Source of the DNA: Burkholderiales bacterium
GTDB lineage: Bacteria > Pseudomonadota > Gammaproteobacteria > Burkholderiales > SG8-39
Assembly: GCA_020845995.1 (NCBI GenBank)
Contig: JADLES010000172.1
Location: 1 to 57,110, forward strand
Direction: 5' to 3'
DNA: 57,110 nucleotides
The notes under the pieces are model-generated. The model searched no databases, had not been told where the DNA came from, and was given only the letters and a program-made list of their open reading frames with translations. Position numbers and translations under genes: made by a program. This document shows, in pieces, positions 12,746 through 53,454 of this stretch. Positions within the stretch are counted from its first letter, which is position 1, and each line of letters begins with the position of its first letter.

Positions 12746-12752
12746 ATTACCA

Positions 12753-13164: not shown

Positions 13165-13469
13165 TGATGAAGACGATGAGAGATCCGAAGCGCAAGCCGA
13201 CGCACCCTGGAGCGGTGCTGCGCGAGGACGTACTGCCGGCGTTGAAGATGACGCAGGGTGATTTTGCCCATCGGCTCGGGGTGAGCCGCCTGAGCGTCTC
13301 AGAGTTGCTGCACGAGAAGCGCGCCATGTCTGCCGATATGGCGATGCGGATCGGGCGCCTGACGAATACCACGGCCGAGAGCTGGGTGCGGATGCAGACT
13401 GCGCTCGATCTCTGGGCGCTCGAGCAGGACACGAAGCGCTACCGGCACATCGAGCCGGTCGCTGCGTAG
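13164..13469 (+). CDS. higA: type II antitoxin HigA (Xre-type HTH)
   Basis: The ATG shares one nt with the higB TGA (TGATG). 101 aa with HPGAVLRED..., an HTH segment (TQGDFAHRLGVSRLSVSELLHEKRAMSADMAMRIGR) and TTAESWVRMQ. Confidence 0.9.
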   Translation: MMKTMRDPKRKPTHPGAVLREDVLPALKMTQGDFAHRLGVSRLSVSELLHEKRAMSADMAMRIGRLTNTTAESWVRMQTALDLWALEQDTKRYRHIEPVAA

Positions 13470-13496
13470 GCACCGACCCGGCGGCCCCGGGAAAGC

Positions 13497-13529
13497 GCCC
13501 GAACCGAGCGCGCTAACGCTCGGCCGGGC
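13497..13529 (+). other. GC-rich stem-loop 3' of higA (possible terminator or stabiliser, no U-tract)
   Basis: gcccg-aa-ccgagcg-[cgctaa]-cgctcgg-c-cgggc. It starts 28 nt after the higA stop. Confidence 0.3.
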
Positions 13530-13563
13530 TGACCACAACGCAACCTGAAAGGAGGTTCGCATC

Positions 13564-13716
13564 ATGGCTGATCAGCAGACGAGCACCCCGGGTCAGATTT
13601 GCGTGGAAATCAACAGGGCGCTGATGTGCCGAAGGTGTGCTGCGGGCAAAGCCGGGGAGGGTAGAAATGGGGCGTGGTCCGTGGTGGCTGCCCCTGCCAA
13701 CCCACTGTTAAAATAA
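13564..13716 (+). CDS. 50-codon ORF of unknown function with a strong SD (below the track length cut-off)
   Basis: AAAGGAGG lies 8 nt upstream of the ATG. Translation: MADQQTSTPGQICVEINRALMCRRCAAGKAGEGRNGAWSVVAAPANPLLK (C-x8-C-x2-C). It lies inside the islet. Confidence 0.3.
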   Translation: MADQQTSTPGQICVEINRALMCRRCAAGKAGEGRNGAWSVVAAPANPLLK

Positions 13717-13747
13717 TCACTTACCGCCTCCCTCCCGCGCCTCTGGA

Positions 13748-13785
13748 ACGCCAGGGGTCGCGGGTTCGAGTCCCGTCCGCTCCGC
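13748..13785 (+). repeat. right copy of the 38-nt direct repeat (orphan tRNA-Asp 3' fragment)
   Basis: acgccAggggtcgcgggttcgagtcccgtccgctccgc. There is no 5' tRNA half upstream, and the copy ends 21 nt before the ppiD ATG. Confidence 0.9.
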
Positions 13786-13806
13786 GAACGCCATTTACCG
13801 ACCGCG

Positions 13807-37350: not shown

Positions 37351-38304
37351 TCACTCGGCGCGGATATTGGCCTCGCGGATGATAGCCGCGCTCTTGGCCG
37401 ATTCGGCCTGGATGAAGGCCGCGAACTCGGACGCGGTGTGGCCGGTGGGCTGGAAGCCGAACGTTCCCATGCGCGCGCGCACATCGGCGGACTGCACCGC
37501 GCGGATGGCTGCGGACTCGAGCTTCGAGGCGATGCCGCGCGGCAGCTTCGCCGGGCCCCACAGCCCGTACCAGGAGTAGATCTCGAGCTCCGGCATGCCC
37601 GCCTCCGCGACGGTCGGTACGTCGGGATACTGCGGGCTGCGCTGCGTGCCGGTGATCGCGAGCGCCCGCAGCTTGCCCGCCTTCACCTGCGGACCGGAGG
37701 ACAGCACCGGGTCGATCATCGCGCTCACCTGCCCGCCGATGAGATCGGGCAGCGCCTGGCCGGTGCCCTTGTACTGGATGATCGGGATGTCGACGCCGGC
37801 GCGCTGGCGGAAAAGGGCGATCGCCAGGTGTCCGGCCGCGCCGAAGCTCGAGGTGGCGAAGTTGTACTTCTTCGGGTCGGCGCGCAGCACCTCGACGAAT
37901 TCCTTGACGCTCTTCGCGGGCACCCCCGGATAGATGGTGAACAGCAGCGGCCCGCGCGCGAGCTCGGCGATCGGCGTGAAGTCCTTCACCGCGTCGTAGG
38001 GCAGCGACTTCAGCACGTGCGCGTTGATGATGTGGACCGAGGCGTTGATGTAGAGCGTGTAGCCGTCGGGCGGGCTCTTCGCCACCACCTCGGCGCCGAG
38101 CGTCGTCGACGCGCCGGCGCGGTTTTCGAACACCATCGGCTGGCCGAGATACTCGGCCAGCTTGGCGCCGACCATGCGCGCCACCCCGTCGACCGACCCG
38201 CCCGGCGGCGTCGGAATGACGATGCGGACCGGCCTGTCGGGGTACTCCTGGGCCTGGGCCAGCGCGGCGAAGCCGATGAGCGCGAGAAGAAGGAGCTTTT
38301 TCAT
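37351..38304 (-). CDS. Bug/TctC-family tripartite tricarboxylate transporter substrate-binding protein
   Basis: 317 aa with signal MKKLLLLALIGFAALAQA and YPDRPVRIVIPTPPGGSVD. Its ATG overlaps the stop of the upstream DHDPS-like gene (ATGA). Confidence 0.88.
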   Translation of the reverse strand: MKKLLLLALIGFAALAQAQEYPDRPVRIVIPTPPGGSVDGVARMVGAKLAEYLGQPMVFENRAGASTTLGAEVVAKSPPDGYTLYINASVHIINAHVLKSLPYDAVKDFTPIAELARGPLLFTIYPGVPAKSVKEFVEVLRADPKKYNFATSSFGAAGHLAIALFRQRAGVDIPIIQYKGTGQALPDLIGGQVSAMIDPVLSSGPQVKAGKLRALAITGTQRSPQYPDVPTVAEAGMPELEIYSWYGLWGPAKLPRGIASKLESAAIRAVQSADVRARMGTFGFQPTGHTASEFAAFIQAESAKSAAIIREANIRAE

Positions 38305-39242
38305 GCGGCCATGGCGAGCCTGGGCTGGATCTTGTAGCCGTATTTCTTGTCCAGGCCAAGCTCCTGCACGATACGGACGCCCGCCATCAGCGCCTCGCCT
38401 TCCAGATTGCGCAGCGGCTTCCTCAGGCTGCCGACCGGCAGGCCGAGCACGCGCATCAGCGACTTCGGCGCCACCGGGTTGATGGCGGAGTAGTTGAAGT
38501 GCATGAGCGGCAGCAGGCGCAGGTACGTCTTGCGGAAATTCTCCGCGTCCGCGTGGCTCCTCCAGGGCGTCGAGAGCGCGGCCATTTCCTGCGGCGCGAT
38601 GTTGCCGGTCATGTTCGCCGTGCCCTGGCCGCCGAGGCTCATGGTCGGCACCACCAGGCCCAGATTCGGCGAGTCGCAGCACATGACCGCGGCATCGGGC
38701 CGGGCCGCGAGGACCTGCGCCACCTGCGCGACGCGCGTCGTCGACTCCTTGAGGATCACGTAGTTGGGATGCTTGAGCAGGCGCAGCAGATGCGTCCAGT
38801 GCAGATCGGTCTTGACGCGGGGCGGGTTGTTGTAGATGCCGAGCGGAAACTCGAGCGCGTCGGCCACCTCCTGGTAATGGCGCTCGACGTCGTCCTCGGG
38901 ACCGCAGATGTAGGGCGGCGCGGCGATGATCGCGCCGTCGCCGCCGTTCGCCTGGACGAAGCGCACGTTGTCGATCACCTGCCGGGTCGTGTTGCCGGTG
39001 CAGCCGTAGAAAAACTTCATCTTCCCGGTCTTGAGCTTCGCGGTCTCGACGACGATCCGCTTTTTCTCCTCGGGCTCGAGCAGCGAAGGCTCTCCGGTGG
39101 AGCCCATGATGAGCACCGCCGACGTGCCGTTGTCTTCCTGGTGCGCGAGCAGAGCGCGCCACGCACCGAAGTCGACGCCGCCGTCTTCGTTGAACGGCGT
39201 CGGCGGAGCGACGAACGAGCCTTCGATGCGCAGCTTTGCCAT
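38301..39242 (-). CDS. dihydrodipicolinate synthase/N-acetylneuraminate lyase family protein
   Basis: Trimmed from the 611-aa track ORF to MAKLRIEGSFVAPPTPF (SD GGGAGG). 313 aa with GSTGE and the Schiff-base Lys context VILKEST. Confidence 0.85.
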   Translation of the reverse strand: MAKLRIEGSFVAPPTPFNEDGGVDFGAWRALLAHQEDNGTSAVLIMGSTGEPSLLEPEEKKRIVVETAKLKTGKMKFFYGCTGNTTRQVIDNVRFVQANGGDGAIIAAPPYICGPEDDVERHYQEVADALEFPLGIYNNPPRVKTDLHWTHLLRLLKHPNYVILKESTTRVAQVAQVLAARPDAAVMCCDSPNLGLVVPTMSLGGQGTANMTGNIAPQEMAALSTPWRSHADAENFRKTYLRLLPLMHFNYSAINPVAPKSLMRVLGLPVGSLRKPLRNLEGEALMAGVRIVQELGLDKKYGYKIQPRLAMAA

Positions 39243-39281: not shown

Positions 39282-40043
39282 ATGGATCTGGGCATCGAAG
39301 GCCGCCGCGCGCTCGTGTGGGGCGGAACCCGCGGCATGGGCCGCGCGGCCGCCGCGCAACTCGTGCGCGAGGGCGCCGAGGTCACGGTCGCGGCGCGCAA
39401 TCGAGAACGATTGGCAAGAACCGCGCAAGAGATCGGCGTCAGGACCGTCGCCGCGGATCTCGCCACGGCGGAAGGCCGCGCCGCGGCGCTCGCCGCCTGC
39501 CCGCGGCCCGACATCCTGGTCAATAACGCCGACGGTCCGGCGCCGGGCGATTTTCGCCAGTGGACGCGCGAGCGCTGGCTGAGCACGCTCGACTCGGTGA
39601 TGCTCGGGCCGATCTTCATGATCCAGCTCGTGCTCGACGGCATGATCGCGCGCCGTTACGGCCGCATCATCAACATCAGCGCGCGCACGGTGAAAAGTCC
39701 GCAGCCGGAGGCGGGGCTGTCGAACGGCGCACGCTCGGGTCTCATCGGCTTCGTCGCGGGCCTGGCGCGCCAGACCGTGCGCCACAACGTGACCATCAAC
39801 AACCTGCTGCCGGGGATCTTCGACTCGGACGCGCAGCGCGAGCACGTGCGCAGCGTCGCGGCGCTGACGGGCCGCCCCTACCAGGAGATCTGGGATGCGA
39901 GGGCGGAGGAAAACCCCGCGGGGCGCTACGGCCGTCCGGAGGAGGCGGGCGCCTATATCGCGTTCCTTTGCTCCGCGCAGGCCGGCTTCATCACCGGCCA
40001 GAACCTGCTCATCGACGGCGGCCAGTATCCCGGAACGTTCTAG
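39282..40043 (+). CDS. SDR family oxidoreductase
   Basis: 253 aa with the N-terminal ALVWGGTRGMGRA. It is divergent from the DHDPS-like gene across a 39-bp spacer. Confidence 0.86.
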   Translation: MDLGIEGRRALVWGGTRGMGRAAAAQLVREGAEVTVAARNRERLARTAQEIGVRTVAADLATAEGRAAALAACPRPDILVNNADGPAPGDFRQWTRERWLSTLDSVMLGPIFMIQLVLDGMIARRYGRIINISARTVKSPQPEAGLSNGARSGLIGFVAGLARQTVRHNVTINNLLPGIFDSDAQREHVRSVAALTGRPYQEIWDARAEENPAGRYGRPEEAGAYIAFLCSAQAGFITGQNLLIDGGQYPGTF

Positions 40044-41323
40044 AAGCGCCGCGGGCTGAAGGGCCCGATGTCGATCGAAAGGCTTTTCCCGCCAATCAGC
40101 TCGCTCAGCAGCTTTCCGGTCAGCGGGGCGGCGCACATGCCGACGTGGCCGTGGCCGAAGGCGTAGTAGGCGTTCGCATAGCGCGACGAGGTGCCGATCA
40201 CCGGCAGGGAATCCGGCAGCGAGGGGCGGAATCCCAGCCAGCGGCTCAGGCGCGACTCGTCGTGGCGCTCCAGCAGGCCCGGCAGGATGCGCCGGCCACG
40301 ATTCAGGATCGCGTCGGCGCGCGCCCAGTTCGCGCCGGCCTCGAGCCCGCCGAGTTCGACCGTGCCGGCGAGGCGCAGGCCGTCTTCCATCGGCGTGATG
40401 CCGAAGGCGCCGTCGACGAAAATCGCCGGCGTGCGCACCGTCTTTTCGGGATCCTTGACGACGACGTGATAGCCGCGCTCGGTATCGAGCGGCACCGGGT
40501 CGCCGAGCTGCGCCGCGAGGGCCCTCGACCAGGCGCCCGCGGCGAGCACCACGGCGCTCGCCGGATGGCGGCCGCGATCGGTTCGCACGGCGGTGACCTG
40601 GGCGTCGTTCGTTTCGAAGCCGAGGACTCGCTCCTGCACGACGCGGCCTCCGCGCGCCGCGATCTGCCGGACGAGCGTCTGCACGAGACGCAAGGGGTTG
40701 GTCGTGAATCCGTTGTCCGGAATGAAGCGCGCGTGCGTGACGGCGGCGCCGAGATCGGGTTCACGCTCGCCGAGCGCGCGCCGCTCGATCTCCTCGATGA
40801 CGACGCCGTTGCGCCGCCGCAAATCCATGGCGCGCAGGTCTCCCCGCCATGCCGCCTCGCTGCCGTACAGGTACAGCATCCCCTGCCTGCGCACGAGCGC
40901 TTCGGCGCCCGCGTCGCGCAAGAGCGGCGCGAAATGCTCGAGCGAATCCTTGAGCAAGGCGCGCAGCGCGCGCGCCTGCGCCTCGACGCGCGCGGGCGCC
41001 GAGGCGGCGGCGAAACGCGCGAGCCAGGGGACGAGCCGGGGAAGGTAGGACCAGCGGATCGCGAGCGGCCCCTCCGCGTCGATGAGCCAGCGCGGCACCT
41101 TGCCGAGCGTCCCGGGCATCGCCACGGGAACGATCGACGACGCCGAGAGCATCCCGCCGTTGCCGAAGGATGCGCCCATGCCCGGCTCGCCGTGGTCGAG
41201 GAGCAGCACGTCGCGCCCGTCGCGCTGCAGGTACGCGGCACCGCACGCGCCGACGATGCCCGCGCCGATGACGACGATCGGCGTCACGAGGGCGCTCAGC
41301 GCGTCGCCGCGGCGCCCGTCCAC
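40040..41323 (-). CDS. FAD-dependent oxidoreductase (D-amino-acid dehydrogenase/oxidase-like, DadA family)
   Basis: It has the dinucleotide fold VVIGAGIVGACGAAYL and DAO-family length. Candidate starts are the ATG at 41323 (28-nt overlap with the upstream ORF) or the GTG at 41287 (8 nt after that ORF's stop). Confidence 0.8.
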   Translation of the reverse strand: MDGRRGDALSALVTPIVVIGAGIVGACGAAYLQRDGRDVLLLDHGEPGMGASFGNGGMLSASSIVPVAMPGTLGKVPRWLIDAEGPLAIRWSYLPRLVPWLARFAAASAPARVEAQARALRALLKDSLEHFAPLLRDAGAEALVRRQGMLYLYGSEAAWRGDLRAMDLRRRNGVVIEEIERRALGEREPDLGAAVTHARFIPDNGFTTNPLRLVQTLVRQIAARGGRVVQERVLGFETNDAQVTAVRTDRGRHPASAVVLAAGAWSRALAAQLGDPVPLDTERGYHVVVKDPEKTVRTPAIFVDGAFGITPMEDGLRLAGTVELGGLEAGANWARADAILNRGRRILPGLLERHDESRLSRWLGFRPSLPDSLPVIGTSSRYANAYYAFGHGHVGMCAAPLTGKLLSELIGGKSLSIDIGPFSPRRF

Positions 41324-41883
41324 AGCGCCGGTCGCCAGAAGAGCGTGGCGAGCCAGAGCGCCGCGAGCAGGATGCTGAGCTTGACGAGGAGGTTGCCGGC
41401 GGCGACCTGCTGATCGACGAGGTAGTAGTTGCAGAGCCGCACCGGCGACTCGAGGTACAGCCAGCCGACGACCGCCAGCATCGGGATCCAGTTCGCCGCC
41501 ACGAATCCCTTCGCGATCGGACCCAGGCGCGGCCAGGAGAGCGCGAGCGGCAGCCCGACGAGCAGCGGCAGCGAGACGAACTTCAGGAGTTCCGCCGTGC
41601 CCGAGGCGAGCACGGCGTCGAGCGCGCGCGGGATCATCCAGTAGCTGCTGATGCCGAGCGCGAGGACGATCCCGGGGATGCCGCGCTCGTTGCAGGCCGC
41701 GAGGAAGGCGAGCGCCCGCGCGGGCAGGGCGCGCGCGAGCAGCGCGCCCGCGGCGGCGAGGAGCGGGATCTGCACCAGCATGTGCAGCGACATGCTCGCC
41801 TCGAGCGCCGAGCGCAGGGGAGGGATAGCGAGCGCGCCGAGCAGCGTCGCGCCCGTCCAGGCGTAGCGATGTTCCGGGCTCAC
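41296..41883 (-). CDS. polytopic membrane protein of unknown function (orf1 position of a norSY-senC-orf1-type cluster)
   Basis: 195 aa with ~5-6 hydrophobic segments. The GTG start overlaps the SCO stop (GTGA at 41880-41883). Confidence 0.65.
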   Translation of the reverse strand: MSPEHRYAWTGATLLGALAIPPLRSALEASMSLHMLVQIPLLAAAGALLARALPARALAFLAACNERGIPGIVLALGISSYWMIPRALDAVLASGTAELLKFVSLPLLVGLPLALSWPRLGPIAKGFVAANWIPMLAVVGWLYLESPVRLCNYYLVDQQVAAGNLLVKLSILLAALWLATLFWRPALWTGAAATR

Positions 41884-42476
41884 AGGTTGGCGAGATGCGC
41901 GCGGAGTTCAGCCGCCGAGGCGTCGAGGTCCAGGATGCGGGCGAGCCGTCCCTCCCGGTCGAGCAGGTGGATCGCGCCGTTGTGCTGGAATTCGCCGAGC
42001 GCGTCCGGGATCACCACCACGCCGAAGGTGGCGAGCAGCGCGGCGAGCTCGGAGCGGTCGGCAACCCGCGCGATCCGCCAGCGCGCGGCGTCGGCCCGGT
42101 AGCGCCGCGCGTAGTCCGCGAGCGCCGCGGGGGTATCGTGTTCCGGGTCGAAGCTCACGCTGAGGAGCCGCAACTCGTCGCCCGATTGCTCGAGCTCGCC
42201 CTGCAGCCGCTCGAACCCGGATCCCATCACGGCACAGAGCGTGCGGCAGCGCGTGTAGATGAACTCGACCGCGACCGCCGTGCCGCGGTATTCGTCGAGC
42301 CGGAACGATCTCCCGGTCCCGTCCTCGAGGAGCGCCGCCGGCACCGCCGCCGGGTGCCGGGCGATCGCCAGCCGGCGCGCCTGTTCGGTGGTGAATGCGC
42401 TCAGCCCGTCGGTGCCCGCCCACAGCACGCCGGCGCAGAGGGCGAGCGCGAGGAGGGTCGCGGCGGCGAGCCGCAC
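41880..42476 (-). CDS. SCO/SenC family copper chaperone (thioredoxin fold)
   Basis: It has an N-terminal TM anchor, the CxxxC motif (YTRCRTLC) and a downstream His (HNGAIHLLD). The GTG at 42476 is 2 nt after the subunit I stop. There is no in-frame ATG, so the start is uncertain. Confidence 0.82.
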   Translation of the reverse strand: MRLAAATLLALALCAGVLWAGTDGLSAFTTEQARRLAIARHPAAVPAALLEDGTGRSFRLDEYRGTAVAVEFIYTRCRTLCAVMGSGFERLQGELEQSGDELRLLSVSFDPEHDTPAALADYARRYRADAARWRIARVADRSELAALLATFGVVVIPDALGEFQHNGAIHLLDREGRLARILDLDASAAELRAHLANL

Positions 42477-42478
42477 CC

Positions 42479-43924
42479 TCAGGCCGCCGCCATGCGCTTC
42501 AGGCCGATGAGGAAGCGCAGCGCGAATACGAGCATCGCCAGCACCACTGCCGCCGCGAAGCAGGCGGCGACGCGGTCGTAGGGCAGCCATTCGGGCAGGT
42601 GGACCGCCCAGCGGCGCGGCACGCTGTCCCTGCCCGACAGGAGGAAAAGAGCGGTGAAACCGAACCCGCCGACGGCGAACACCCAGAACGCGGCGCGGTC
42701 GAGCGCGGAATCGCCTCTTGCCGCCGCCTCGTCGAGCCAGGCCATGAACCCGAGGATCATCGCCACCACCCCGAGCAGCAGGTAGGTGTGGAAGTGCCCC
42801 GGCACCCACATCGTGTTGTGCATCACCTTGTTGACGACGATCGTGGCGTCGATCACTGCCGGGACGACGCCCGTCGCCCAACCGAGCACCGAGAGAAAGA
42901 GCAGCCCCGAGGCGAGATTCCAGCGCAGGCCCGAACGGTGGACGTTCGCGAGCGTGCCGACCGCGGTGACCGCGATCACCGGCAGGCTGCTCGTGTACGA
43001 GAGGACCTGCCCGAGCACGTGCATCCAGGTCGGGTTCACGAAATCCATCAGCAGGTGGTGCGGGTACACCGCGAGCACCATCAGGAGGGTCGCGCTCCAG
43101 CCCGCGAGGAACGGGCGCGAAACCTTCCACGGCCGCCCGCTGGCGCGCGGCAGGATCTCGTACACGGCGATCACGCCCATGTAGATCGTCGAATTGATGA
43201 ATACGTGTCCGAAGAAGTAGATCAGGTTCTTGGCAAGCAGCGCGTCGACCGTGAAGCCCGGCACGTAGACGTTGATGAGCGAAAGGGTGAGGATCACCGC
43301 CCCGGCGAGGATCGAGAGCAGATTGATGAACGTCACCACCGTGGAGGCGATCACCACCGGCGGCGGCGGCTCGGAGGCGTCGCCGCCGAACAGCTGCGGC
43401 CAGCCGAGCGCGCGGCCGAGCGAGCCGTAGCGCCCGAGGATCGCCCGCGCGCAGTCGAGGTAAAAGAGCAGGAAGCCCACGCCCACGATGAGCACGCCGA
43501 GCAGATAGCTCGCCGCCGCCCATTGCGGCCAGATGCCCATCGGCTTGGCCGGCAGCGGATAGAGGAAGGTCCAGGCGCCGGCGAAGCCGCCGATGAAAAT
43601 TCCCGCGAGCACCAGCACGACGCCCACCAGGAACAGCGCCAGGTTCGCATATAGGATCCCGGTCGAGAGCCGCACCCGGCGCGCGAGGAAGTACCAGAGG
43701 ATGGCCGCCGTGCCGAGCGCGGCGATCGCCACCATGCCGATGCCGTGCGCGGTCATGACCTGGTAGAAATACACCGCTTCGAGCCCAAGCCACTCGGACT
43801 GCGCGAGCCGCATCGCAAGGCCGAAGAGCATCATCAGCAGCAGCACCACCGCCGCGACCGCGAGGTAGGCGAGCACGCCGCGCTTGCCGGCGGGATCGAG
43901 CGGGAGTTCGGGTTTGTCTGCCAT
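42479..43924 (-). CDS. heme-copper oxidase superfamily subunit I, B-type-like but lacking the cross-link Tyr (norY/sNOR-like)
   Basis: 481 aa starting at MADKPELPL. His ligands are present (TAHG; YPHHLLMD; VPGHFHTYLL). Helix VI reads FFGHVFINSTIY instead of GHP(E/I)VY. Confidence 0.88.
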   Translation of the reverse strand: MADKPELPLDPAGKRGVLAYLAVAAVVLLLMMLFGLAMRLAQSEWLGLEAVYFYQVMTAHGIGMVAIAALGTAAILWYFLARRVRLSTGILYANLALFLVGVVLVLAGIFIGGFAGAWTFLYPLPAKPMGIWPQWAAASYLLGVLIVGVGFLLFYLDCARAILGRYGSLGRALGWPQLFGGDASEPPPPVVIASTVVTFINLLSILAGAVILTLSLINVYVPGFTVDALLAKNLIYFFGHVFINSTIYMGVIAVYEILPRASGRPWKVSRPFLAGWSATLLMVLAVYPHHLLMDFVNPTWMHVLGQVLSYTSSLPVIAVTAVGTLANVHRSGLRWNLASGLLFLSVLGWATGVVPAVIDATIVVNKVMHNTMWVPGHFHTYLLLGVVAMILGFMAWLDEAAARGDSALDRAAFWVFAVGGFGFTALFLLSGRDSVPRRWAVHLPEWLPYDRVAACFAAAVVLAMLVFALRFLIGLKRMAAA

Positions 43925-43934
43925 GATGCCCTCT

Positions 43935-44462
43935 CTATTTCGCTTCGCTGGCCGTGATCTCGGCCAGCATGCCGTGATGGACGAGGCCGCAGTACTCGAG
44001 GCACAGCACGCGGTACTTGCCCGGCCGGGTGAAGACATGGCGCAGCACGTTGGTGTATCCGGGCATCGCCTGCGCCTGCGCGATCAGCTTCAGATCCGGG
44101 TCGTACAATCCGAAGCCGTGATTGACGTCGGACGCGGTGATGTGGAAGTCGACCGGCTTGCCGACCTGCACCTCGGTCCCGCTCAATTCCCAGCGCCATT
44201 GGTGGCCAATCGCCTTGATCACCTGCGGCGGGCCGCCGGCCACGGCCGCGACGGAGTATGGGAGGTCGCGGAGCGTGTAGCCGAAGATCGGCAGGAAAAC
44301 CGCGACCAGCACCCAGAAGATCCAGCTGCGAATGCGTCCCGAGGTCTGGGAGATCGCCGTCGCGTCGGCCTTGTCGCCGGCGCCCAGCGCGACCCACGCG
44401 AAGACGGCGAAGAAGGCGAGAACCAGTGGCACCGTGACTTGCCACGCGAGCGAGTGAATCAT
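43935..44462 (-). CDS. heme-copper oxidase subunit II-like cupredoxin protein with a complete CuA motif (norS-like)
   Basis: 175 aa with SD AAGGAG 5 nt upstream, two N-terminal TM helices, and the CuA pattern DVNHG...CLEYCGLVHHGM (H, C-x-E-x-C-x3-H-x2-M). Confidence 0.85.
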   Translation of the reverse strand: MIHSLAWQVTVPLVLAFFAVFAWVALGAGDKADATAISQTSGRIRSWIFWVLVAVFLPIFGYTLRDLPYSVAAVAGGPPQVIKAIGHQWRWELSGTEVQVGKPVDFHITASDVNHGFGLYDPDLKLIAQAQAMPGYTNVLRHVFTRPGKYRVLCLEYCGLVHHGMLAEITASEAK

Positions 44463-44745
44463 CTTTTCTCCTTGGTGCGCGCCCGCCCGAGTCCCGTCAA
44501 CTCGGCGCCAGCGCGATCACATCGATCACAAACAAATGTTGAGGCTACGGGCAGCGAGCGCCCGGTGTCAAGGCGCGACTCGGCGCGCGCGCATCCGATG
44601 AAACGGGTTGATGCGTGGGATCCGGATTCTTCTAGAATCGGGAAACCCGGCCGTGCGGAGTCTCGCGGGCGCGGGCTCGAGTCCCGCGTTTCCGGAATGA
44701 GTTTCATGTCGGCGAGTTCGGCAACTGGCTGAAGCAACCCTAGCG

Positions 44746-46014
44746 GTGCGCCGCTACCGGCGCCTGCGGCTGCTCGCCTATTCGCTTGGCGCGGCCGCCT
44801 TCGTGCTCGCCTTCTTCCACCGGGTGGCGCCCGGCACCATCGCCGCCGACTTGCGCGCGCAGTTCCAGGCGAGCGCGACGATGCTGGGTTTCATTGCCGC
44901 GTTCTACTTTTACCCCTACGCGGCGATGCAGCTGCCCTCGGGCGTGCTCGCCGACGGCGTCGGCCCGAGGCGGTTGTTCACCGGCGGCTGCCTGGTCGCG
45001 GGCGCGGGCTCGCTCGTTTTTGCGCTCGCCCCCGACGCCGTCTGGCTGCTGGCAGGGCGCGCGCTGGTCGGGCTGGGCGTGGCGGTGGTTTTCGTCTCGG
45101 TGCTCAAGCTTATCGCCAGCTGGTTCGGCGAGCGCGAGTTCGCCACCTGGGTGGGGGTGCTGCAGCTGGTCGGAAACCTCGGCGCCACGCTGGGCGCCTG
45201 GCCGCTCGCCTGGCTGGTGGCGCGCATCTCCTGGCGCGATGTTTTCGTCGGCACGGGGTTGATCTCGCTCGCGCTCGCTGCCTGCACCTGGTTCTGGGTG
45301 CGCGATACTCCGGCCGAAGCCGGCCTGCGCAAGCCGGGCGAAGCTCCGGGCGCCTTGCAGGCGCGGGCGAAGCAGGGCGACTGGCTGCGCGGCCTCGCGC
45401 GAGTGGCAGCCAGCCGCCAGACCTGGCTCGCCTTTCTCGTCCTCTTCGGCCTGGTCGGCTCCTACATGACCTTTTCCGGTCTCTGGGCGGTTCCGTACCT
45501 CACCGAGGCGCTCGGAATGAGCCGCGAACTGGCCACGCTGCACGTCACCGTGATGATTCTTGGCTTCGCCTTTGGCGCCCCGGTCGCGGGCCTGGTCTCC
45601 GACCGCATCGGCCTGCGCCTGCCGCCCCTGCGCATCCTCGGGATCCTCTACCTTGCCTGCTGGTTGCCCTGGGTGATGGGCTGGCCGCTGCCCATCTGGG
45701 CGTCGATGGCGGTGTTCGTCGGCATGGGCATCGGCATCGCCGGTTCGGTCACCAGCTGGGCCATCGCCAAGGAGAACAACCCGCCCGCGCTCTCGGGAAC
45801 GGCGACGAGCCTGGTCAACGGCGGAGGCTTCCTGGCTGTCGCTCTGCTGCAGCCGGCCGTGGGCTGGGTCATCGACCGCTCCGCGGGCGCGCCCGCGCTC
45901 GAGGCATACCGGGCCGCCGCGGCTCTGCTCGCCGCGTTCGCGCTCACGGGCGTGGCCGCGACATTTGCGCTGCGGGAAACGCGCTGCCGGAACCTGGCCT
46001 CGGATTTGAGGTAG
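44746..46014 (+). CDS. MFS transporter
   Basis: 422 aa with a GTG start and ~12 hydrophobic segments. An MFS loop 2-3-like motif is present (LADGVGPRR). Confidence 0.85.
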   Translation: MRRYRRLRLLAYSLGAAAFVLAFFHRVAPGTIAADLRAQFQASATMLGFIAAFYFYPYAAMQLPSGVLADGVGPRRLFTGGCLVAGAGSLVFALAPDAVWLLAGRALVGLGVAVVFVSVLKLIASWFGEREFATWVGVLQLVGNLGATLGAWPLAWLVARISWRDVFVGTGLISLALAACTWFWVRDTPAEAGLRKPGEAPGALQARAKQGDWLRGLARVAASRQTWLAFLVLFGLVGSYMTFSGLWAVPYLTEALGMSRELATLHVTVMILGFAFGAPVAGLVSDRIGLRLPPLRILGILYLACWLPWVMGWPLPIWASMAVFVGMGIGIAGSVTSWAIAKENNPPALSGTATSLVNGGGFLAVALLQPAVGWVIDRSAGAPALEAYRAAAALLAAFALTGVAATFALRETRCRNLASDLR

Positions 46015-46039
46015 CCTGAGCGGCGTCAATCCCCGCCGC

Positions 46040-47083
46040 ATGCGTCTCCTGGAGCAACTGGCCGAGCTTTCGCCCGCGTATTTCGGGATGGTGATGGCGA
46101 CGGGCATCGTCTCCATCGCCGCCCACCTGCTCGGCATGCGGACCGTCGCGAGCGGACTGTTCGTGCTCAACGTGGCCGCCTACGCGGTGCTGTGGCTGCT
46201 CACCGTGCTGCGCATGCTCCGTTACCCGCGCCGGTTCTTCGGCGACATGGTCGATCACCTGCGCGGACCGGGCTTCTTCACCACCGTCGCCGCGACAAGC
46301 GTCCTCGGCAGCCAGTTCGTCGTGCTGGCGGCCGATGAGCGCACGGCGACCGTGCTCTGGGTCCTGGCGATCGCGCTCTGGCTGGGACTGACGTACACCA
46401 TCTTCGCGGGCTTCACCATCAAGGAACGCAAGCCGACGCTCGACCAGGGCATCAACGGGGCCTGGCTGCTGGCGGTGGTCGCGACGCAGTCGATCGTGGT
46501 GCTCAGCGGGCTGCTCGCACCGCATCTCGCGCAGCCCGGCCGGCTGGAGATGAATTTTTTCGCGCTCTCGATGTGGCTGTGGGGCGGCATGCTCTATATC
46601 TGGATGATGTCGCTGATCTTCTACCGCTACACGTTCTTCGCCCTGGCGCCCGGAGACCTGTCGCCCCCTTACTGGATCAACATGGGCGCGATGGCGATCT
46701 CCACGCTGGCGGGCTCGCTGCTGATCATCAACGTGCCCGACGCCCCTTTCCTGCTCTCGCTGCTGCCGTTCATCAAGGGCTTCACGGTATTCTATTGGGC
46801 GACTGGAACCTGGTGGATCCCCATGCTGCTGGTGCTCGGTGTCTGGCGCCACGTCTACCGGCGTTTTCCGCTGCGCTACGACCCGCTGTACTGGGGCGCG
46901 GTCTTTCCCTTCGGGATGTACGCGGCGTGCACGCACCAGATGATCCAGGCGATGGGAGTCGAGTTCCTGCGGTTTCTGCCGACGACGGTCTTCTATGTCG
47001 CGCTGGCGGCCTGGACGGTCGCGTTCGCGGGGTTGGTCTTCGACCTGCTGCGCCGCGTCGCCGCGCCCGGCGATCCGCGCTGA
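46040..47083 (+). CDS. tellurite-resistance/dicarboxylate transporter (TDT; TehA/Mae1/SLAC1-like) family protein
   Basis: 347 aa with ~10 TM segments. The N-terminal SPAYFGMVMATGIVS is typical of the family. Confidence 0.78.
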   Translation: MRLLEQLAELSPAYFGMVMATGIVSIAAHLLGMRTVASGLFVLNVAAYAVLWLLTVLRMLRYPRRFFGDMVDHLRGPGFFTTVAATSVLGSQFVVLAADERTATVLWVLAIALWLGLTYTIFAGFTIKERKPTLDQGINGAWLLAVVATQSIVVLSGLLAPHLAQPGRLEMNFFALSMWLWGGMLYIWMMSLIFYRYTFFALAPGDLSPPYWINMGAMAISTLAGSLLIINVPDAPFLLSLLPFIKGFTVFYWATGTWWIPMLLVLGVWRHVYRRFPLRYDPLYWGAVFPFGMYAACTHQMIQAMGVEFLRFLPTTVFYVALAAWTVAFAGLVFDLLRRVAAPGDPR

Positions 47084-47981: not shown

Positions 47982-49154
47982 TCAGAACGAGCGCGGCAGG
48001 CCGAGCACGTGCTCGGCCACGTAGGACAGGATCAGGTTGGTCGAAATCGGCGCGACGAGATACAGCCGCGTCTCGCGGAACTTGCGCTCGACGTCGTATT
48101 CGGCGGCGAAGCCGAAGCCGCCGTGGGTCTGGATGCAGACGTTGGCCGCGCCCCAGGAGGCCTTGGCGCACAGGTGCTTGGCCATGTTTGCTTCGGCTCC
48201 ACAATGAAGCTCTTGATCAAATAAAGAAGCAGCTTTATATCTCATCAAGTTGGCGGCCTCGATCTCCATGTAGGCCTCGGCGATCGGGAACTGGATGCCC
48301 TGGTTCTGGCCGATCGGCCGGCCGAAGACGACGCGGTCCTTCGAGTATTGCGCGGCCTTGCCGATGAACCAGTAGCCGTCGCCGACGCACTCCGCGGCGA
48401 TGAGGATGCGCTCGGCGTTGAGGCCGTCCAGGATGTACCGGAAGCCCTTGCCTTCCTCGCCGATCAGGCTTTCGGCGGGCAGCTCGAGATTGTCGATGAA
48501 GACTTCATTGGTTTCGTGATTGACCATGTTGCGGATGGGCTTGACGGTGAGCCCGTTGCCGATGGCCTTGCGCGTATCCACGAGGAAGATGGACATGCCG
48601 TCGGACTTCTTCTTCACCTTGTCGAGCGGCGTGGTGCGCGCAAGCAGAATCATCAACTCCGAGTGCTGCAGGCGCGAGGTCCAGACCTTCTGGCCGTTGA
48701 CCACGTAGCGGTCGCCTTTCCTCACCGCCACCGTCTTGATCCTGGTGGTGTCGGTGCCGGCGGTCGGCTCGGTCACGCCCATCGCCTGCAGGCGCAGCTC
48801 GCCGGCCGCGATCTTGGGCAGGTACATCCGTTTCTGCTCCGGTGAGCCGTTGCGCAGCAGCGTGTTCATGTTGTACATCTGCCCATGGCAGCAGCCGGCG
48901 TTACCGCCGGAGCGCGTGACTTCCTCCATGATCACGGTCGCCTCGGTGAGCGAGAGGCCCGAGCCGCCGTACTCCTCGGGAATCAGCGCCGACATCCAGC
49001 CGGCCCTGGTGAGAGCGTCGACGAAGGCCTCGGGGTAGGCGCGCGCCTCGTCGATCTTCTGCCAGTAGGCGGAGTCGAAGGTGGCGCACAGCGCGCGCAC
49101 CGCGTCGCGAATGGCGGCATGAGAGTCAGCGGCGTGGCTCTCGTCGGCCTTCAC
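47982..49154 (-). CDS. acyl-CoA dehydrogenase
   Basis: Trimmed to the GTG at 49154, which overlaps the stop of the upstream Bug gene (GTGA). 390 aa with the ACAD mid-domain motif (VTEPTAGTDT). Confidence 0.9.
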   Translation of the reverse strand: MKADESHAADSHAAIRDAVRALCATFDSAYWQKIDEARAYPEAFVDALTRAGWMSALIPEEYGGSGLSLTEATVIMEEVTRSGGNAGCCHGQMYNMNTLLRNGSPEQKRMYLPKIAAGELRLQAMGVTEPTAGTDTTRIKTVAVRKGDRYVVNGQKVWTSRLQHSELMILLARTTPLDKVKKKSDGMSIFLVDTRKAIGNGLTVKPIRNMVNHETNEVFIDNLELPAESLIGEEGKGFRYILDGLNAERILIAAECVGDGYWFIGKAAQYSKDRVVFGRPIGQNQGIQFPIAEAYMEIEAANLMRYKAASLFDQELHCGAEANMAKHLCAKASWGAANVCIQTHGGFGFAAEYDVERKFRETRLYLVAPISTNLILSYVAEHVLGLPRSF

Positions 49155-50110
49155 TGCTCGGCCTTCACCCCGGCGGTCTGGATCACCTTCGCCCACTTGG
49201 CGATCTCGTCGGCGAGGAACTTCTGCGCCTGCTCGGGCGTGCCGCCGCCGGCGAAGATGCCGAGCTGATCGAAGCGCGCGGCCATGTCGGGCGCTTTGAC
49301 GGCCCTGTCGGCCTCCTGCGCGAGGCGGTTGACGATGTCGCGCGGCGTGTTCGCGGGCGCGAGAAACATCAGCCAGGTCGAGGACTCGATCGGCGGGCCG
49401 CCGGCTTCGGGGAGCGTCGGCACCTCCTGGGCGCCGGGCACGCGCTTCGCGGAGAACATGCCGAGCGCCTTGATCTTGCCGCCGCGCACGTGCGGCATCA
49501 GCGTGCTCGGCACGTCGACGAGGATCTGGATGTCGCCGCTCATCAACCCCTGCAGGGCGGGCGCCGTGCCCTTGTAGGGAATGTGCACCATGAAGGTGCC
49601 GGTGGTCTGCTTGAACAGCTCGGTCGTGAGATGCGCCGCGGCGCCGATCCCCGAGGAGCCGAAGGAGATCTTGCCCGGATTCTTTTTCGCGTAGTCGACG
49701 AGGTCCTTGACGTTCTTCGCGGGGAAGTCGTTGTTCGCGGTGAGGATCAGCGGCGCGACCACTGCCAGCGACACCGGCGCGAAGCTCTTCACAGGATCGA
49801 ACGGCAGCTTGCCCTGGTAGAGCGTGGCGTTGGCGGCGTGCGCGGCGATGACCGTCCCGAGCGTGTAGCCGTCGGCGGCCGCCTTGGAGACGAAATCGGC
49901 GCCGATGATCGAGTTCGCGCCGGGTTTGTTTTCGACCACGATCGGCTGCTTGAGCGATTCCTGCAGCTTCTGCGTGATCATGCGCGTCACATTGTCGGTG
50001 ATGCCGCCCGGCGTGTAGGGAACCACCCAGCGGATGGGCTTGCCGGGGTAGCTCTGTGCGTGAACGCTGAGTGCGGTAAAGATCAGGGGGAAAATCGCAA
50101 GGGTTCTCAT
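49151..50110 (-). CDS. Bug/TctC-family substrate-binding protein
   Basis: 319 aa with signal MRTLAIFPLIFTALSVHA and YPGKPIRWVVPYTPGGITD. Confidence 0.9.
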   Translation of the reverse strand: MRTLAIFPLIFTALSVHAQSYPGKPIRWVVPYTPGGITDNVTRMITQKLQESLKQPIVVENKPGANSIIGADFVSKAAADGYTLGTVIAAHAANATLYQGKLPFDPVKSFAPVSLAVVAPLILTANNDFPAKNVKDLVDYAKKNPGKISFGSSGIGAAAHLTTELFKQTTGTFMVHIPYKGTAPALQGLMSGDIQILVDVPSTLMPHVRGGKIKALGMFSAKRVPGAQEVPTLPEAGGPPIESSTWLMFLAPANTPRDIVNRLAQEADRAVKAPDMAARFDQLGIFAGGGTPEQAQKFLADEIAKWAKVIQTAGVKAEQ

Positions 50111-50172
50111 GGTGTCGGCTTGGAGTCGGGTCGATCGAAGACGCTAGAATAGCAAGCCGAGGGAAGGTGGCG

Positions 50173-51132
50173 ATGCCGGTCCAGAGATGGTTTCACGCGG
50201 TGCTCGCTTGTGCGCTGGCGGCGGCGGCGCCGGCTGTGCTTGCCCAGGCAACCCGCGTTGTGGTGCCGGGGCCGCCGGGCGGATTCGCCGATATCGCGGT
50301 GCGCCTGATCGCGGAGCGGCTGCAGCGGGAGCTGGGCGGGCCGGTGGTGATCGAGCACAAGCCGGGCGCCGGCGGCACCGTGGCGCTGGAGTTCCTGAGG
50401 AATGCCCGGCCCGACGGCGCGACGGTGGCGATGATCAACCTGTCGGCCGCCGCCAACGAGACGCTCGTCAAGGGAAAAGCCTGGACGCTGCTCGGCGACT
50501 TCGAGCCGATCGGTCAGTACGCCTGGCTCGCCAACGTCCTGATCGTGAATCCGTCGGCGCCGGGAGCAGACCTCGCCGGGCTGGTCGAAGCGCTGCGCAG
50601 ACTGCCGGCCGTCAGCTACGCCTCGGGCGGCGTCGGCAGCCCGGGCCACCTGATCGGCGAGTTGTTTCGCCTGCGGGCGGGCGTCGCGATGACGCACGTG
50701 CCGTACAAGGGCGCCCCGCCCGCCGTGACCTCGGTGCTCGCGGGAGAGACGGTGCTGATGTTCGCGACCGCTTCCTCCGCACTTGGCCAGGTGCGCGGCG
50801 GCCGCGTGCGCGCGCTGGCGGTGACCGTGGGTGAGCGCCTGCCGCAGCTGCCGGAGGTACCCACGCTCGCAGAAGCGGGCTACCCGGATCTGAACGTGAC
50901 TGACTGGGCCGGGATGCTCGCGCCCAGGGCAACGCCGCAGGAGGCGCGCGAGCGGCTGAATCGCGCGTTTACCGCGGCGTTCGCCGACCCGGCGGTGGCC
51001 GCGAAGCTGCGCGAGGCGACCATCGTGCCGGCGCGCAAGCCGCTCGGTCCGGCCGAATTCACCGCCTTCCTGCGCGCCGAAATCGAGAAGTGGGCGAAAG
51101 CCGCGCGCGACGCGGGCATCGCCGCAAACTAG
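50173..51132 (+). CDS. Bug/TctC-family substrate-binding protein
   Basis: The ATG at 50173 is preceded by GGGAAGG; the track GTG at 50167 is the alternative. It carries VVPGPPGGFAD and is divergent from the preceding Bug gene. Confidence 0.88.
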   Translation: MPVQRWFHAVLACALAAAAPAVLAQATRVVVPGPPGGFADIAVRLIAERLQRELGGPVVIEHKPGAGGTVALEFLRNARPDGATVAMINLSAAANETLVKGKAWTLLGDFEPIGQYAWLANVLIVNPSAPGADLAGLVEALRRLPAVSYASGGVGSPGHLIGELFRLRAGVAMTHVPYKGAPPAVTSVLAGETVLMFATASSALGQVRGGRVRALAVTVGERLPQLPEVPTLAEAGYPDLNVTDWAGMLAPRATPQEARERLNRAFTAAFADPAVAAKLREATIVPARKPLGPAEFTAFLRAEIEKWAKAARDAGIAAN

Positions 51133-52214
51133 GCGAGCAGGCGATCGAGGAGCGCGGCAAAGGCGCGGCCGTGCCGGGCAATCGACCCCGCATCCGTGCA
51201 GCGGCCCGGGAGGTCCTGCGAGCTGTGGAAGTAGGGGTGGCGGCCGGCTATGGAGAGAAACGGCCGGTCGAAGACTTCGCGCGCTTCGCCGTGCGGCCGC
51301 AGGTCCGCGCCGGCGAGCGCGACGCCCTCGATGCCCTCGGCGCGCAGGCGCGCCGGAAACCACTCGCGCAGCCGCGCGTCGCGCGTGAACACGCGCATGC
51401 CCGCCGCATTGCGCGCGCCGATCGAGGCGCCAAGCTGCAGCCAGAACTCCGGCTGCGCGCGGCGCGCGGGATCGCGCCCCAGGTAGGCCAGCAGGCCGCG
51501 GTGACCAAGCTCGTGGCCGGAGGTAAAGAGCACGCGAAGGTGCTTGCGGCGAGAGGGCAGGGCGGCGGCGCGCGCGGCAAGCGACAGCGCGAGCGCGATT
51601 CCTCCGCCGCGCTCTCCCGCGCAATCGAACCACCCCGACTTCGGCGTTAGCAGGACTACCGTGCCGGCGCCATCGGTTCCCGGCACATCGGCGACGACAT
51701 TCGTCGCCTCGCCGGTGACGAGCTCGCTGTCGACGGTCAGACGTACGCTGTCACGCGACAAGGCATTCAGGACTTGCGCGTCTCTGCGGGCAATCTGCAG
51801 CACGGGTTTCGGCCAGGGCGCGTCCATGCGCTCGGCGTTGCGTAGTAGAACCTGGCCCTCGGGGTCACCGGTGACCAGCAGCGCGCCGCGCGTGCCGGCG
51901 GCCGCCAGTTCGCGGGTGAGCGCCTCGTCCGAGGCGTCTTCCAGAATCGCAATGCCGCCCTCGATCCCCGCGGCCCCGGTGGCCGGGGCATCGTGGAGCG
52001 GCACTCCCGCGACGCGCAGGGCGCCCGCGCTCGCGTAAGCGGCCCGAATTCGCGGCGCACGAAAGAAAAACGGCTCCGCGCGCGCGGCGATGCCGTGCTT
52101 CTGGAGCCAGGAACAGAGCCAGCTGCTGGTCGCCGCGTCGGCCTCGCTCCCGGTGCGGTGCTCGCCAATCGCGGCGTAGGCTTCGACGATCCGGCGCGAA
52201 GCGGCGCTGTCCAA
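51129..52214 (-). CDS. hypothetical protein; weak, unverified resemblance to M28/PA-domain peptidase-like proteins
   Basis: This is the C-terminal 361 codons of the 643-aa track ORF. There is no in-frame ATG near the CoA-transferase stop; the candidates are the TTG at 52214 or the CTG at 52223. Motifs noted: HRTGSEADAATSSWL, FTSGHELGHRG. Confidence 0.45.
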   Translation of the reverse strand: MDSAASRRIVEAYAAIGEHRTGSEADAATSSWLCSWLQKHGIAARAEPFFFRAPRIRAAYASAGALRVAGVPLHDAPATGAAGIEGGIAILEDASDEALTRELAAAGTRGALLVTGDPEGQVLLRNAERMDAPWPKPVLQIARRDAQVLNALSRDSVRLTVDSELVTGEATNVVADVPGTDGAGTVVLLTPKSGWFDCAGERGGGIALALSLAARAAALPSRRKHLRVLFTSGHELGHRGLLAYLGRDPARRAQPEFWLQLGASIGARNAAGMRVFTRDARLREWFPARLRAEGIEGVALAGADLRPHGEAREVFDRPFLSIAGRHPYFHSSQDLPGRCTDAGSIARHGRAFAALLDRLLA

Positions 52215-52219
52215 GCCGA

Positions 52220-53443
52220 TCAGACGATGCCCGAGGCTTTCAAGCGCCGCAGCTCGTCGTCGCTCTTGCCGAGCAAACCGTTCAGGACCTCGGCTGTGTG
52301 CTGCCCCAGCGTCGGCGGCGCGAGGCGGTACTCGACCGGAGTCGCCGACAGGCGCAGCGGGCTGCGCACCATCGAGGCGGTGCAGCCGAGCGGATGCTGC
52401 ATGTCCAGGCGCAGCTCGCGGTGCCGCACCTGCGGGTCCTCGAACACTTCCTTCATGTTGTTGATCGGGCCGCAGGGCACGTTGGCGGCTTCGAGCAGCT
52501 CGATCCACTCGCGCTTGGAGCGCGTGCGCATCACGTCGGTGATGAGCGGGATCAGCTCGGCGCGGTGCACGATGCGCTGCGACATCGTCCGGAAGCGCGG
52601 CTCCTGCGCGAGTTCCGGGCAGCCGGCCGCCTGGCAGAAGCTGGCGAACTGGCTGTCGTTGCCGACGGCGAGGATCACATGGCCGTCCGCCGCGGGGAAC
52701 ACCTCGTAGGGCACCACCTGACCGTGCGCGTTGCCCCAGCGCACCGGGATCCTGCCCGAGGCGAAGTAGGCGCAGATCTGGTTGGCGTTGAAGGCGACGA
52801 TGGTGTCGAGCAGCGCGGTGTCGATGTACTGGCCCTGGCCGGTGCGCTCGCGGTGCGTCAGCGCGGCGAGGATCGCGACGCTCGCGTACATGCCGGTGAG
52901 CACGTCGGTGATGGCGATGCCCACTTTCTGCGGGCCCGCGCCGGGCTGGCCGTCGCGCTCGCCGGTGATCGACATCAGCCCGCCCATCCCCTGGAAGATG
53001 AAGTCGTAGCCCGGGCGCGGCGCGTACGGCCCGTCCTGGCCGAAACCGGTGACCGAGCAATAGACGATCGAGGGGTTTGTGGATCTGATTTTTTCGTATC
53101 CCAGACCGTATTTATGCAGAGTCCCGACCTTGTAATTTTCGATCAGAACCTGGCACTGGTCCGCGAGCTCGCGCGCGATTCTCTGGCCCTCGGGCCTGGC
53201 GATGTCCAGGGTGACGGACTTCTTGTTGCGGTTGACCGACAGGAAGTAGGAGGGCTCGCTGGTGTCCTTGCCGTCGGCATCCTTCATCCACGGCGGGCCC
53301 CAGCCGCGCGTGTCGTCGCCCGTGCCGGGACGCTCGATCTTGATGACTTCAGCGCCGAGGTCGGCAAGGTTCTGCGACGCCCAGGGGCCGGCGAGGACGC
53401 GGGAAAGGTCGAGGACGCGGATATGGGAAAGGGGGCCGGGCAT
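52220..53443 (-). CDS. family III CoA-transferase (CaiB/BaiF/formyl-CoA transferase-like)
   Basis: Trimmed to MPGPLSHIRVLDLSRVLAGPWASQNLADLGAEVIKIE. 407 aa. Confidence 0.9.
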   Translation of the reverse strand: MPGPLSHIRVLDLSRVLAGPWASQNLADLGAEVIKIERPGTGDDTRGWGPPWMKDADGKDTSEPSYFLSVNRNKKSVTLDIARPEGQRIARELADQCQVLIENYKVGTLHKYGLGYEKIRSTNPSIVYCSVTGFGQDGPYAPRPGYDFIFQGMGGLMSITGERDGQPGAGPQKVGIAITDVLTGMYASVAILAALTHRERTGQGQYIDTALLDTIVAFNANQICAYFASGRIPVRWGNAHGQVVPYEVFPAADGHVILAVGNDSQFASFCQAAGCPELAQEPRFRTMSQRIVHRAELIPLITDVMRTRSKREWIELLEAANVPCGPINNMKEVFEDPQVRHRELRLDMQHPLGCTASMVRSPLRLSATPVEYRLAPPTLGQHTAEVLNGLLGKSDDELRRLKASGIV

Positions 53444-53454
53444 CGGGGATCCGC

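Follow-up and report, generated by a model that had tools for sequence, protein, structure and literature searches.

The sNOR family of heme-copper enzymes, encoded by the gene cluster norSY-senC-orf1, was reportedly described by Stein in 2007 and by Hemp and Gennis in 2008. Such clusters are documented in ammonia oxidisers (NE0683-86 and Nmul_A2667-64; PMC4940428) and in N. oceani (Noc2969-71; PMC3772326), and sNOR is placed among the heme-copper oxidoreductases (HCOs) as a family related to the B-family, that has a CuA subunit and lacks the active-site Tyr (Murali et al. 2024, PMC11214002). It is found in 344 GTDB genomes (Murali et al., Table 1; PMC11214002) and is without biochemical characterisation (PMC11214002), in agreement with an earlier, sequence-only reading of the DNA described here, which had called the class predicted but not purified. 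A nitric oxide (NO) reductase in which the Tyr is exchanged for Asn has been purified from B. azotoformans: qCuANOR, now bNOR (Heylen and Keltjens 2012, PMC3475470), is electrogenic (PMC11214002; PMC3475470), and this organism also encodes a “type II” paralogue with a subunit I of 12 transmembrane helices (TMH), a subunit II of two, SenC and a protein of four to five TMH (PMC3475470). Here we analyse four genes in a 57,110-nucleotide stretch of a Burkholderiales bacterium (contig JADLES010000172.1; “the window”), which probably form one operon for an sNOR-type, CuA-dependent NO reductase along with factors for its assembly. Published work already covers the family, its gene order and its Asn signature, and the locus is a typical, intact further member.

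The four genes lie intact and closely packed on the minus strand at 41296-44462:

43935-44462, minus strand: norS, CuA-binding subunit II (175 residues, two N-terminal TMH; Pfam COX2)
42479-43924, minus strand: norY, heme-copper superfamily subunit I (481 residues, 12 TMH; Pfam COX1)
41880-42476, minus strand: senC, membrane-anchored SCO1/SenC copper chaperone (198 residues; Pfam SCO1-SenC)
41296-41883, minus strand: orf1, conserved polytopic membrane protein (195 residues; fourth position conserved)

A gap of 10 nt (43925-43934) separates norS from norY, the GTG start of senC (42474-42476) lies 2 nt past the TGA of norY, and the GTG start of orf1 overlaps the TGA stop of senC (GTGA). The sequence-only reading had reported this arrangement, together with a subunit II with two TMH, a CuA pattern and an AAGGAG Shine-Dalgarno sequence, a subunit I with the six canonical His ligands, an SCO/SenC protein carrying CRTLC and a polytopic protein of 195 residues; each of these was recovered in the sequence, and the His ligands in alignment as well. 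The translational-coupling spacing of the four genes is identical to that in relatives, and their GC content at third codon positions (GC3) is typical for the host.

Relatives were collected in a scan of one genome per GTDB species, which gave at least 386 confirmed relatives; 80 loci were retrieved, and synteny across them was tested by tblastn with the four window proteins. The order subunit II, subunit I, SCO, orf1 was found in nearly every sufficiently long locus, with norS directly upstream of subunit I in 79/80 and senC downstream of it in 76/80. Since the same order recurs in nearly all of the 80 loci, the four-gene layout is far beyond chance. The loci span the Gamma-, Beta-, Alpha- and Zetaproteobacteria and a few other phyla, and among them are the ammonia oxidisers Nitrosovibrio sp. 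Nv17 and Nv6, with a subunit I 57-58% identical to that of the window. For subunit I, databases hold over 2,500 relatives at E<=1e-5, and the best are 60-83% identical. Their source names are often “cytochrome c oxidase subunit 1” or “cbb3-type”; the public label “cbb3-type cytochrome c oxidase subunit I” is wrong for such genes.

NorS matches Pfam COX2 (2e-08). Its hydrophobic helices span residues 9-27 and 44-62, and it carries the CuA pattern H114...C153-x-E-x-C157-x3-H161-x2-M164, all ligands of which align one-to-one with the CuA domain of T. thermophilus ba3 (E 1e-13 to 1e-16); the CuA domain of ba3 subunit II is the best solved relative of NorS. Judged by its sequence, NorS is a CuA-containing subunit II. 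SenC matches Pfam SCO1-SenC (9e-16) and carries CRTLC with a downstream His. CuA, SCO and a CtaG-like protein are the usual accessories of oxidases, and as such they speak for a different enzyme, a high-affinity, NO-tolerant terminal O2 reductase: a B-type variant working under hypoxia, which would reduce O2 to water without a Tyr in helix VI. We consider this alternative unlikely.

NorY matches Pfam COX1 (1.6e-45). Its residues H60, H240, H289, H290, H377 and H379 are each kept in 180/180 relatives; H60 and H379 are the ligands of the low-spin heme, H377 that of the high-spin heme, and H240, H289 and H290 those of metal B. When aligned to ba3 with phmmer, H240 pairs with H233, N244 with Y237 and Y255-E-I-L-P with Y248-T-I-L-P, and the Y-x-I-L-P motif lies 15 residues past the helix-VI His in both proteins. 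An Asn at the position of the cross-linked Tyr (His+4) and a ba3-like spacing to the downstream YxILP had both been claimed from the sequence, and both are confirmed because the alignment pairs these residues. Helix VI of NorY reads GHVFIN and so departs from the cross-link motif of B-family oxidases, GHP(I/V)VY. Every characterised HCO oxidase needs the cross-linked Tyr to reduce O2 with four electrons (PMC11214002), and the replacement of this Tyr by Asn in 180/180 close relatives argues against an oxidase.

No substitute for the missing Tyr was evident, as judged by sequence comparison alone. The Tyr of cbb3 oxidases, which in the P. stutzeri structure stands six residues before HH, corresponds to Val283 of NorY, and this position is Val in at least 90% of relatives; helix VII has a single Tyr, Y287, and 25/180 relatives carry Phe in its place, Nitrosovibrio and Thauera among them. 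The lack of a conserved Tyr at either place is a further point against O2 reduction. Y248, present in 179/180 relatives, lies at i+8, two turns below H240 on helix VI, and would more plausibly be the top of a proton path than a substitute Tyr. Published structural models of sNOR contain no migrated Tyr (Murali et al. 2024, PMC11214002). The column of ba3 S309 holds V316 in NorY and Val, Ile or Leu in all 180 relatives; among the 12 Tyr-bearing sequences tabulated, 11 have Ser here, ba3 included, and CyoB has Thr. For the K-channel region of sNOR, the absence of ba3 S309 and a conserved Glu elsewhere have been described (PMC11214002). This Glu may correspond to E256 of NorY, which is present in 168/180 relatives.

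An AlphaFold2 (AF2) model of NorY (predicted local distance difference test, pLDDT, 85.8; predicted template-modelling score, pTM, 0.90) has 12 long helices. Foldseek placed it closest to A- and B-type oxidases in the PDB, with TM-scores of 0.72-0.83 at 15-22% identity, and none of the top 50 matches was one of the NO reductases cNOR or qNOR. As A-type and B-type enzymes reach these TM-scores alike, only the general fold is confirmed. Searched against PDB sequences, the family profile scores aa3 and ba3 about equally (~1e-11) and matches no cNOR or qNOR chain at E<=1; the PDB holds no solved structure of the sNOR family. That the closest solved relatives, by sequence as well as by fold, are A- and B-family O2 reductases is a second point on the side of the oxidase.

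Sequence space beyond the retrieved loci separates the two groups. A profile of 60 sequences (A3), run against 1.84 billion representatives at 50% identity, gave 911 matches at E<=0.001, 162 of them at E<=1e-30. Every full-length match of at least 223 bits reads G-H-x-x-x-N, except for one aberrant sequence with Ser, and every full-length match of at most 212 bits reads GHP(V/I)VY. A neighbour-joining tree of 44 sequences with 100 bootstraps was calculated with numpy from the window, 6 genome homologues, 36 representatives, residues 64-489 of ba3 (from the phmmer alignment) and E. coli CyoB as the outgroup. The 32 Asn-type sequences (31 Asn, 1 Ser) were monophyletic in 96/100 bootstraps, to the exclusion of ba3 and all other Tyr-bearing sequences, which again disfavours an oxidase; within the clade, the window subunit I groups with Nitrosovibrio, Thauera and Thiohalobacter. 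The aberrant member, representative P0281, has Ser at His+4, Gly for D294, Tyr for H379 and a long branch, and may be a decayed or misassembled copy. With this clade and the gap between 223 and 212 bits, the phylogenetic check proposed along with the sequence-only reading came out in its favour: subunit I is not nested in the B-family O2 reductases. The assignment of the cluster to norSY-senC-orf1 (sNOR type) stands on gene order, Asn, CuA subunit and clade placement together.

The genes that accompany the cluster in relatives point to nitrogen oxides. Flanking open reading frames (ORFs) of the 80 loci were clustered and representatives scanned. An Rrf2 gene lies within 6 kb in 32/81 loci, its best NCBIfam match being NsrR (examples are L084:589-1029, L005:8723-9142 and L088:7795-8277). 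An 11-1-11 palindrome of the type AAnATGnAT...ATnCATnTT occurs at most 250 bp upstream of subunit II in 24/32 loci with an Rrf2 gene, as against 5/49 without one, and the 20.2 kb of upstream DNA held NsrR-like sites in 29 loci, compared with 45 matches in 899 kb elsewhere. The nitrite transporter NirC is encoded in 26 loci (297 bits, cut-off 293), an HPP-family protein adjoins the cluster in 9, and NnrU stands upstream of it in one relative, 71% identical (L081). In N. oceani, NsrR (Noc2967) adjoins the sNOR genes (PMC3772326). That nitrite transporters and an NsrR-like repressor with its operator so often accompany the cluster favours a nitrogen-oxide role over an O2 role, and the adjacent regulators are NsrR-like and not O2 sensors.

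Two variants of this context were seen. On the megaplasmid of Ruegeria pomeroyi DSS-3 (L088; NC_006569.1, 195733-199426) the order is Rrf2, subunit II, subunit I, SCO, orf1, FNT transporter and cytochrome c, and the whole lies beside ccoNOQP, a neighbour that fits a terminal oxidase. A truncated hemoglobin also adjoins the cluster here, and the RefSeq labels are misleading for both subunits: “cbb3-type cytochrome c oxidase subunit I” for subunit I and “cytochrome C oxidase subunit I” for subunit II. In some 19 loci, mostly from Rhodocyclales and Burkholderiales (L012, L019, L024, L027-L030, L032, L036, L037, L044, L047, L048, L057, L059-L061, L074 and L079), there is a sigma-54 activator with an N-terminal PAS domain. 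It stands in place of the Rrf2 gene, divergent on the opposite strand about 1.3 kb upstream of subunit II, and carries a Cys-rich stretch (CPTLFAGTPCARQCDSRGRC in L048); of the loci with this activator, just one showed a strict -24/-12 pattern.

A cluster that acts on nitrogen oxides might do something other than respire NO to nitrous oxide (N2O): it could encode a protective NO scavenger without energy conservation, or catalyse a different nitrogen-oxide reaction, as in the NOD- and N2O-reductase-like HCO families. This we hold to be improbable. Bacterial NsrR regulons are typically detoxification regulons, which counts towards such a role, and many carriers, R. pomeroyi and probably the window host among them, show no adjacent nir genes. 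Several HCO families have moreover been proposed for non-canonical nitrogen-oxide chemistry (PMC11214002). On the other side, the active-site residues are the same as those of the electrogenic, N2O-forming bNOR (PMC11214002, PMC3475470), polar residues are conserved in the K-channel region, and N. mobilis, in which sNOR is the only recognisable NO reductase, makes N2O (PMC5665590).

The analogy with bNOR, the nitrogen-oxide genes around relatives and the N2O production of N. mobilis are the grounds on which we read the window cluster as an NO reductase, a function that we consider likely. We infer the following mechanism, including the electron donor, the identity of metal B and the proton path. 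A periplasmic carrier, for instance cytochrome c, would hand electrons to the binuclear CuA of NorS, and NorS would pass them to the low-spin heme of NorY (H60/H379), from where they would reach the high-spin heme (H377) and metal B (H240, H289, H290). Asn244 sits where A/B-type oxidases hold the cross-linked Tyr and cNOR/qNOR the FeB-ligating Glu. Without the Tyr, the site would have no fourth electron to offer for O2 reduction, and the two-electron reaction 2NO + 2H+ + 2e- -> N2O + H2O would be possible. Protons would probably come from the cytoplasm via a modified K-channel (Y248, Y255, E256, S309/Y310/S312, T320), and such uptake would make the reaction electrogenic. SenC is predicted to load CuA; orf1 would most likely be a membrane assembly factor or an accessory subunit.

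Several points weigh against an NO reductase. In N. europaea, norSY-senC is induced 2.7- to 10.8-fold by O2 limitation with cNOR unchanged, and the authors (Sedlacek et al.; bioRxiv 765727 / PMC6967387) propose a high-affinity oxidase; hypoxic induction would, however, equally be expected of a denitrification enzyme. The Rrf2 neighbours match NsrR at a score under the NCBIfam cut-off (133 vs 182 bits), and the tree is a neighbour-joining tree of 44 sequences, built without the reference set that Murali et al. curated. The literature records neither purification nor assay of any sNOR, so that activity is deduced from sequence and context. The window has no nearby NO-responsive regulator, nitrite reductase or nitrite transporter, and its operator-like site (below) is degenerate; its own context therefore adds nothing to the family-level argument. 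Given the invariance of the Asn, the clade and the context in relatives, the proposal first made from the sequence, a CuA-fed NO reductase rather than a terminal oxidase, nevertheless remains the reading that we favour.

The region upstream of norS was analysed in an alignment (A2) of four upstream regions, from the window and three relatives 82-83% identical:

44566-44571, minus strand: candidate -35 hexamer TTGACA, invariant in A2
44542-44547, minus strand: candidate -10 hexamer TAGCCT, in the conserved A2 block CGTAGCCT; weak consensus match (3/6)
44518-44540, minus strand: degenerate Rrf2/NsrR-type operator-like 11-1-11 site AACATTTGTTTGTGATCGATGTG, positional homologue of the L084 palindrome
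44468-44473, minus strand: Shine-Dalgarno sequence AAGGAG of subunit II, read from the sequence, 5 nt before the ATG

TTGACA and TAGCCT are separated by an 18-nt spacer shared with the relatives. A generic sigma-70 scan upstream of subunit II called no promoter and so missed the TTGACA, for which reason the operon promoter stays a candidate, its basis being cross-species conservation. The sigma-54 promoter pattern, sought upstream of subunit II because some 19 relatives carry the divergent sigma-54 activator, is not in the window and occurs in only one related locus. The operator-like site of the window retains complementarity in 4/8 outer pairs, whereas in the relative L084, 83% identical, the palindrome is perfect, AACATCTATTTAGCGTAGATGTT, and an Rrf2 gene lies divergently. 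The Shine-Dalgarno sequence is conserved in the A2 relatives.

The neighbour genes are catabolic and transport genes unrelated to the cluster; they are listed here with other parts of the window:

40040-41287, minus strand: DAO-family FAD oxidoreductase (D-amino-acid-dehydrogenase-like), starting 8 nt past the orf1 stop
44746-47083, plus strand: MFS transporter and SLAC1/TehA-type anion channel, divergent from the operon
37351-38337, 49151-50110 and 50167-51132: TctC/Bug-family periplasmic receptors
8540-15669: clpX-lon-ppiD housekeeping block
51129-53455: long overlapping ORFs on both strands, with no Pfam match and no frame with the host GC3 pattern
Further neighbours: SDR, DHDPS-family enzyme, glyoxalase-like protein and acyl-CoA dehydrogenases

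No homologue of Rrf2, NirC, HPP or the sigma-54 activator was found anywhere in the 57-kb window, which bears out the earlier observation that no NO-responsive regulator gene is adjacent. The place of the MFS and SLAC1 genes is often held in relatives by nitrite transporters (NirC, HPP); the MFS transporter itself matches the NarK family weakly (4.5e-14), far below the cut-off. The flanking genes differ between the window and the relatives 82-83% identical to it, and the unit therefore comprises four genes, with the DAO-family gene outside. There is no terminator between orf1 and this gene, which may be co-transcribed with the cluster by read-through; as a fifth operon member it was rejected, being absent at that position from all relatives except an identical 4.8-kb contig (L086) from JGI sample 3300009873. 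A GC content of ~68%, the TctC/Bug receptors, the clpX-lon-ppiD block and the window ClpX, whose 90%-identity cluster contains proteins named from Burkholderiales metagenome-assembled genomes, point to an uncultured Burkholderiales host.

Unrelated flanking genes that differ from those of relatives 82-83% identical, a degenerate operator-like palindrome and the lack of a regulator gene in 57 kb could also be taken to mean that the copy in this organism was gained by horizontal transfer, is poorly regulated or is decaying, and has no current role. We think this most improbable: the four frames are intact and contain all invariant residues of the family, the coupling spacing is as in relatives and GC3 is host-typical, and the candidate promoter and the Shine-Dalgarno sequence are conserved.

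The orf1 protein of the window has no Pfam or NCBIfam match, and its database homologues are all named “hypothetical”, without a Pfam domain; orf1 is fourth in order in every related locus whose contig extends that far. In a scan of the orf1 family, 6/17 members weakly match DUF1404 and 2/17 match Caa3_CtaG (best 7.7e-06). The AF2 model (pLDDT 92.3) is an all-helical membrane protein with no significant match to PDB folds (best E 3.2). Invariant residues are W82-M83-x-P85, D89, K101, W117, W141-x-Y143, P147-x-R149-x-C151-N152 and Q159; Met, Cys, His and Asp are among the conserved residues and would be fitting for a protein that handles metal. Orf1 is possibly a CtaG-like assembly factor. A wider proposal, in which sNOR is an energy-conserving NO reductase (electrogenic and possibly proton-pumping) with a heme-copper and not a heme-iron centre, and orf1 a hitherto unrecognised CtaG-like metal insertase with a fold that lacks a solved relative, is one that we put forward as speculative and rather doubtful.

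If the heme-copper reading were true, NO would be reduced on a true heme-Cu site without a Tyr cofactor, by a family found in most ammonia oxidisers and in several hundred other bacterial species. Several heme-copper families have been proposed as producers of the greenhouse gas N2O, sNOR among them. It is present in most ammonia-oxidising bacteria, and for deciding between an NO reductase and a hypoxic oxidase the culturable N. europaea, N. mobilis and R. pomeroyi DSS-3 are better suited than the window locus. Since the cluster occurs in heterotrophic Burkholderiales with no nitrogen-cycle genes around it, KEGG-style gene-centric surveys will miss a potential source of N2O.

Among the known systems, cNOR and qNOR (NorB) share with the window cluster membership of the heme-copper superfamily without a cross-linked Tyr, and NO reduction as the proposed reaction. 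The FeB-ligating Glu at His+4 of cNOR is Glu211 (PDB 3O0R). The window cluster falls outside cNOR/qNOR, with Asn at His+4 and a partner subunit of CuA type, whereas in these enzymes a Glu at His+4 ligates FeB, and both a CuA subunit and a cytoplasmic proton channel are lacking (PMC11214002). In place of CuA they carry a cytochrome c (NorC) or a fused quinol domain. The ba3 oxidase of Thermus thermophilus is the best solved sequence match for both subunits and resembles them in its CuA domain, the six His, Y-x-I-L-P and the HCO fold (TM-score 0.72-0.77). It differs in that identity to the window proteins is 20-22%, Tyr237 is exchanged for Asn and S309 for Val, and ba3 lies outside the Asn clade; its subunit I has 13 helices as against 12 here, and its subunit II one TMH as against two.

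The bNOR of Bacillus/Calidifontibacillus azotoformans is similar to the window cluster in having three His with Asn for Tyr, a CuA subunit and linked genes for SenC and a polytopic membrane protein (PMC3475470, PMC11214002). Its own subunit I has 13 TMH (~560 residues), however, its subunit II one, and there is a third subunit, CbaC, of 46 residues (PMC3475470); it is restricted to Bacillales and phylogenetically separate, and the shared active site has been described as convergent (PMC11214002, PMC3475470). No conserved small upstream ORF accompanies the window cluster, which thus does not belong with bNOR, while the type II paralogue of B. azotoformans has the same architecture as the window cluster. 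The sNOR of ammonia- and nitrite-oxidising bacteria, such as N. europaea (NE0683-86), N. multiformis (Nmul_A2667-64) and N. oceani (Noc2968-71), comes closest. The window differs from it in its heterotroph-like Burkholderiales host, in the lack of an adjacent NsrR, NirC or hao and in the degenerate operator; the two agree in the four genes and their order, the CuA subunit II, the Asn at His+4 and a subunit I of 12 TMH with no equivalent of ba3 S309, and the window subunit I falls in the same clade as that of Nitrosovibrio.

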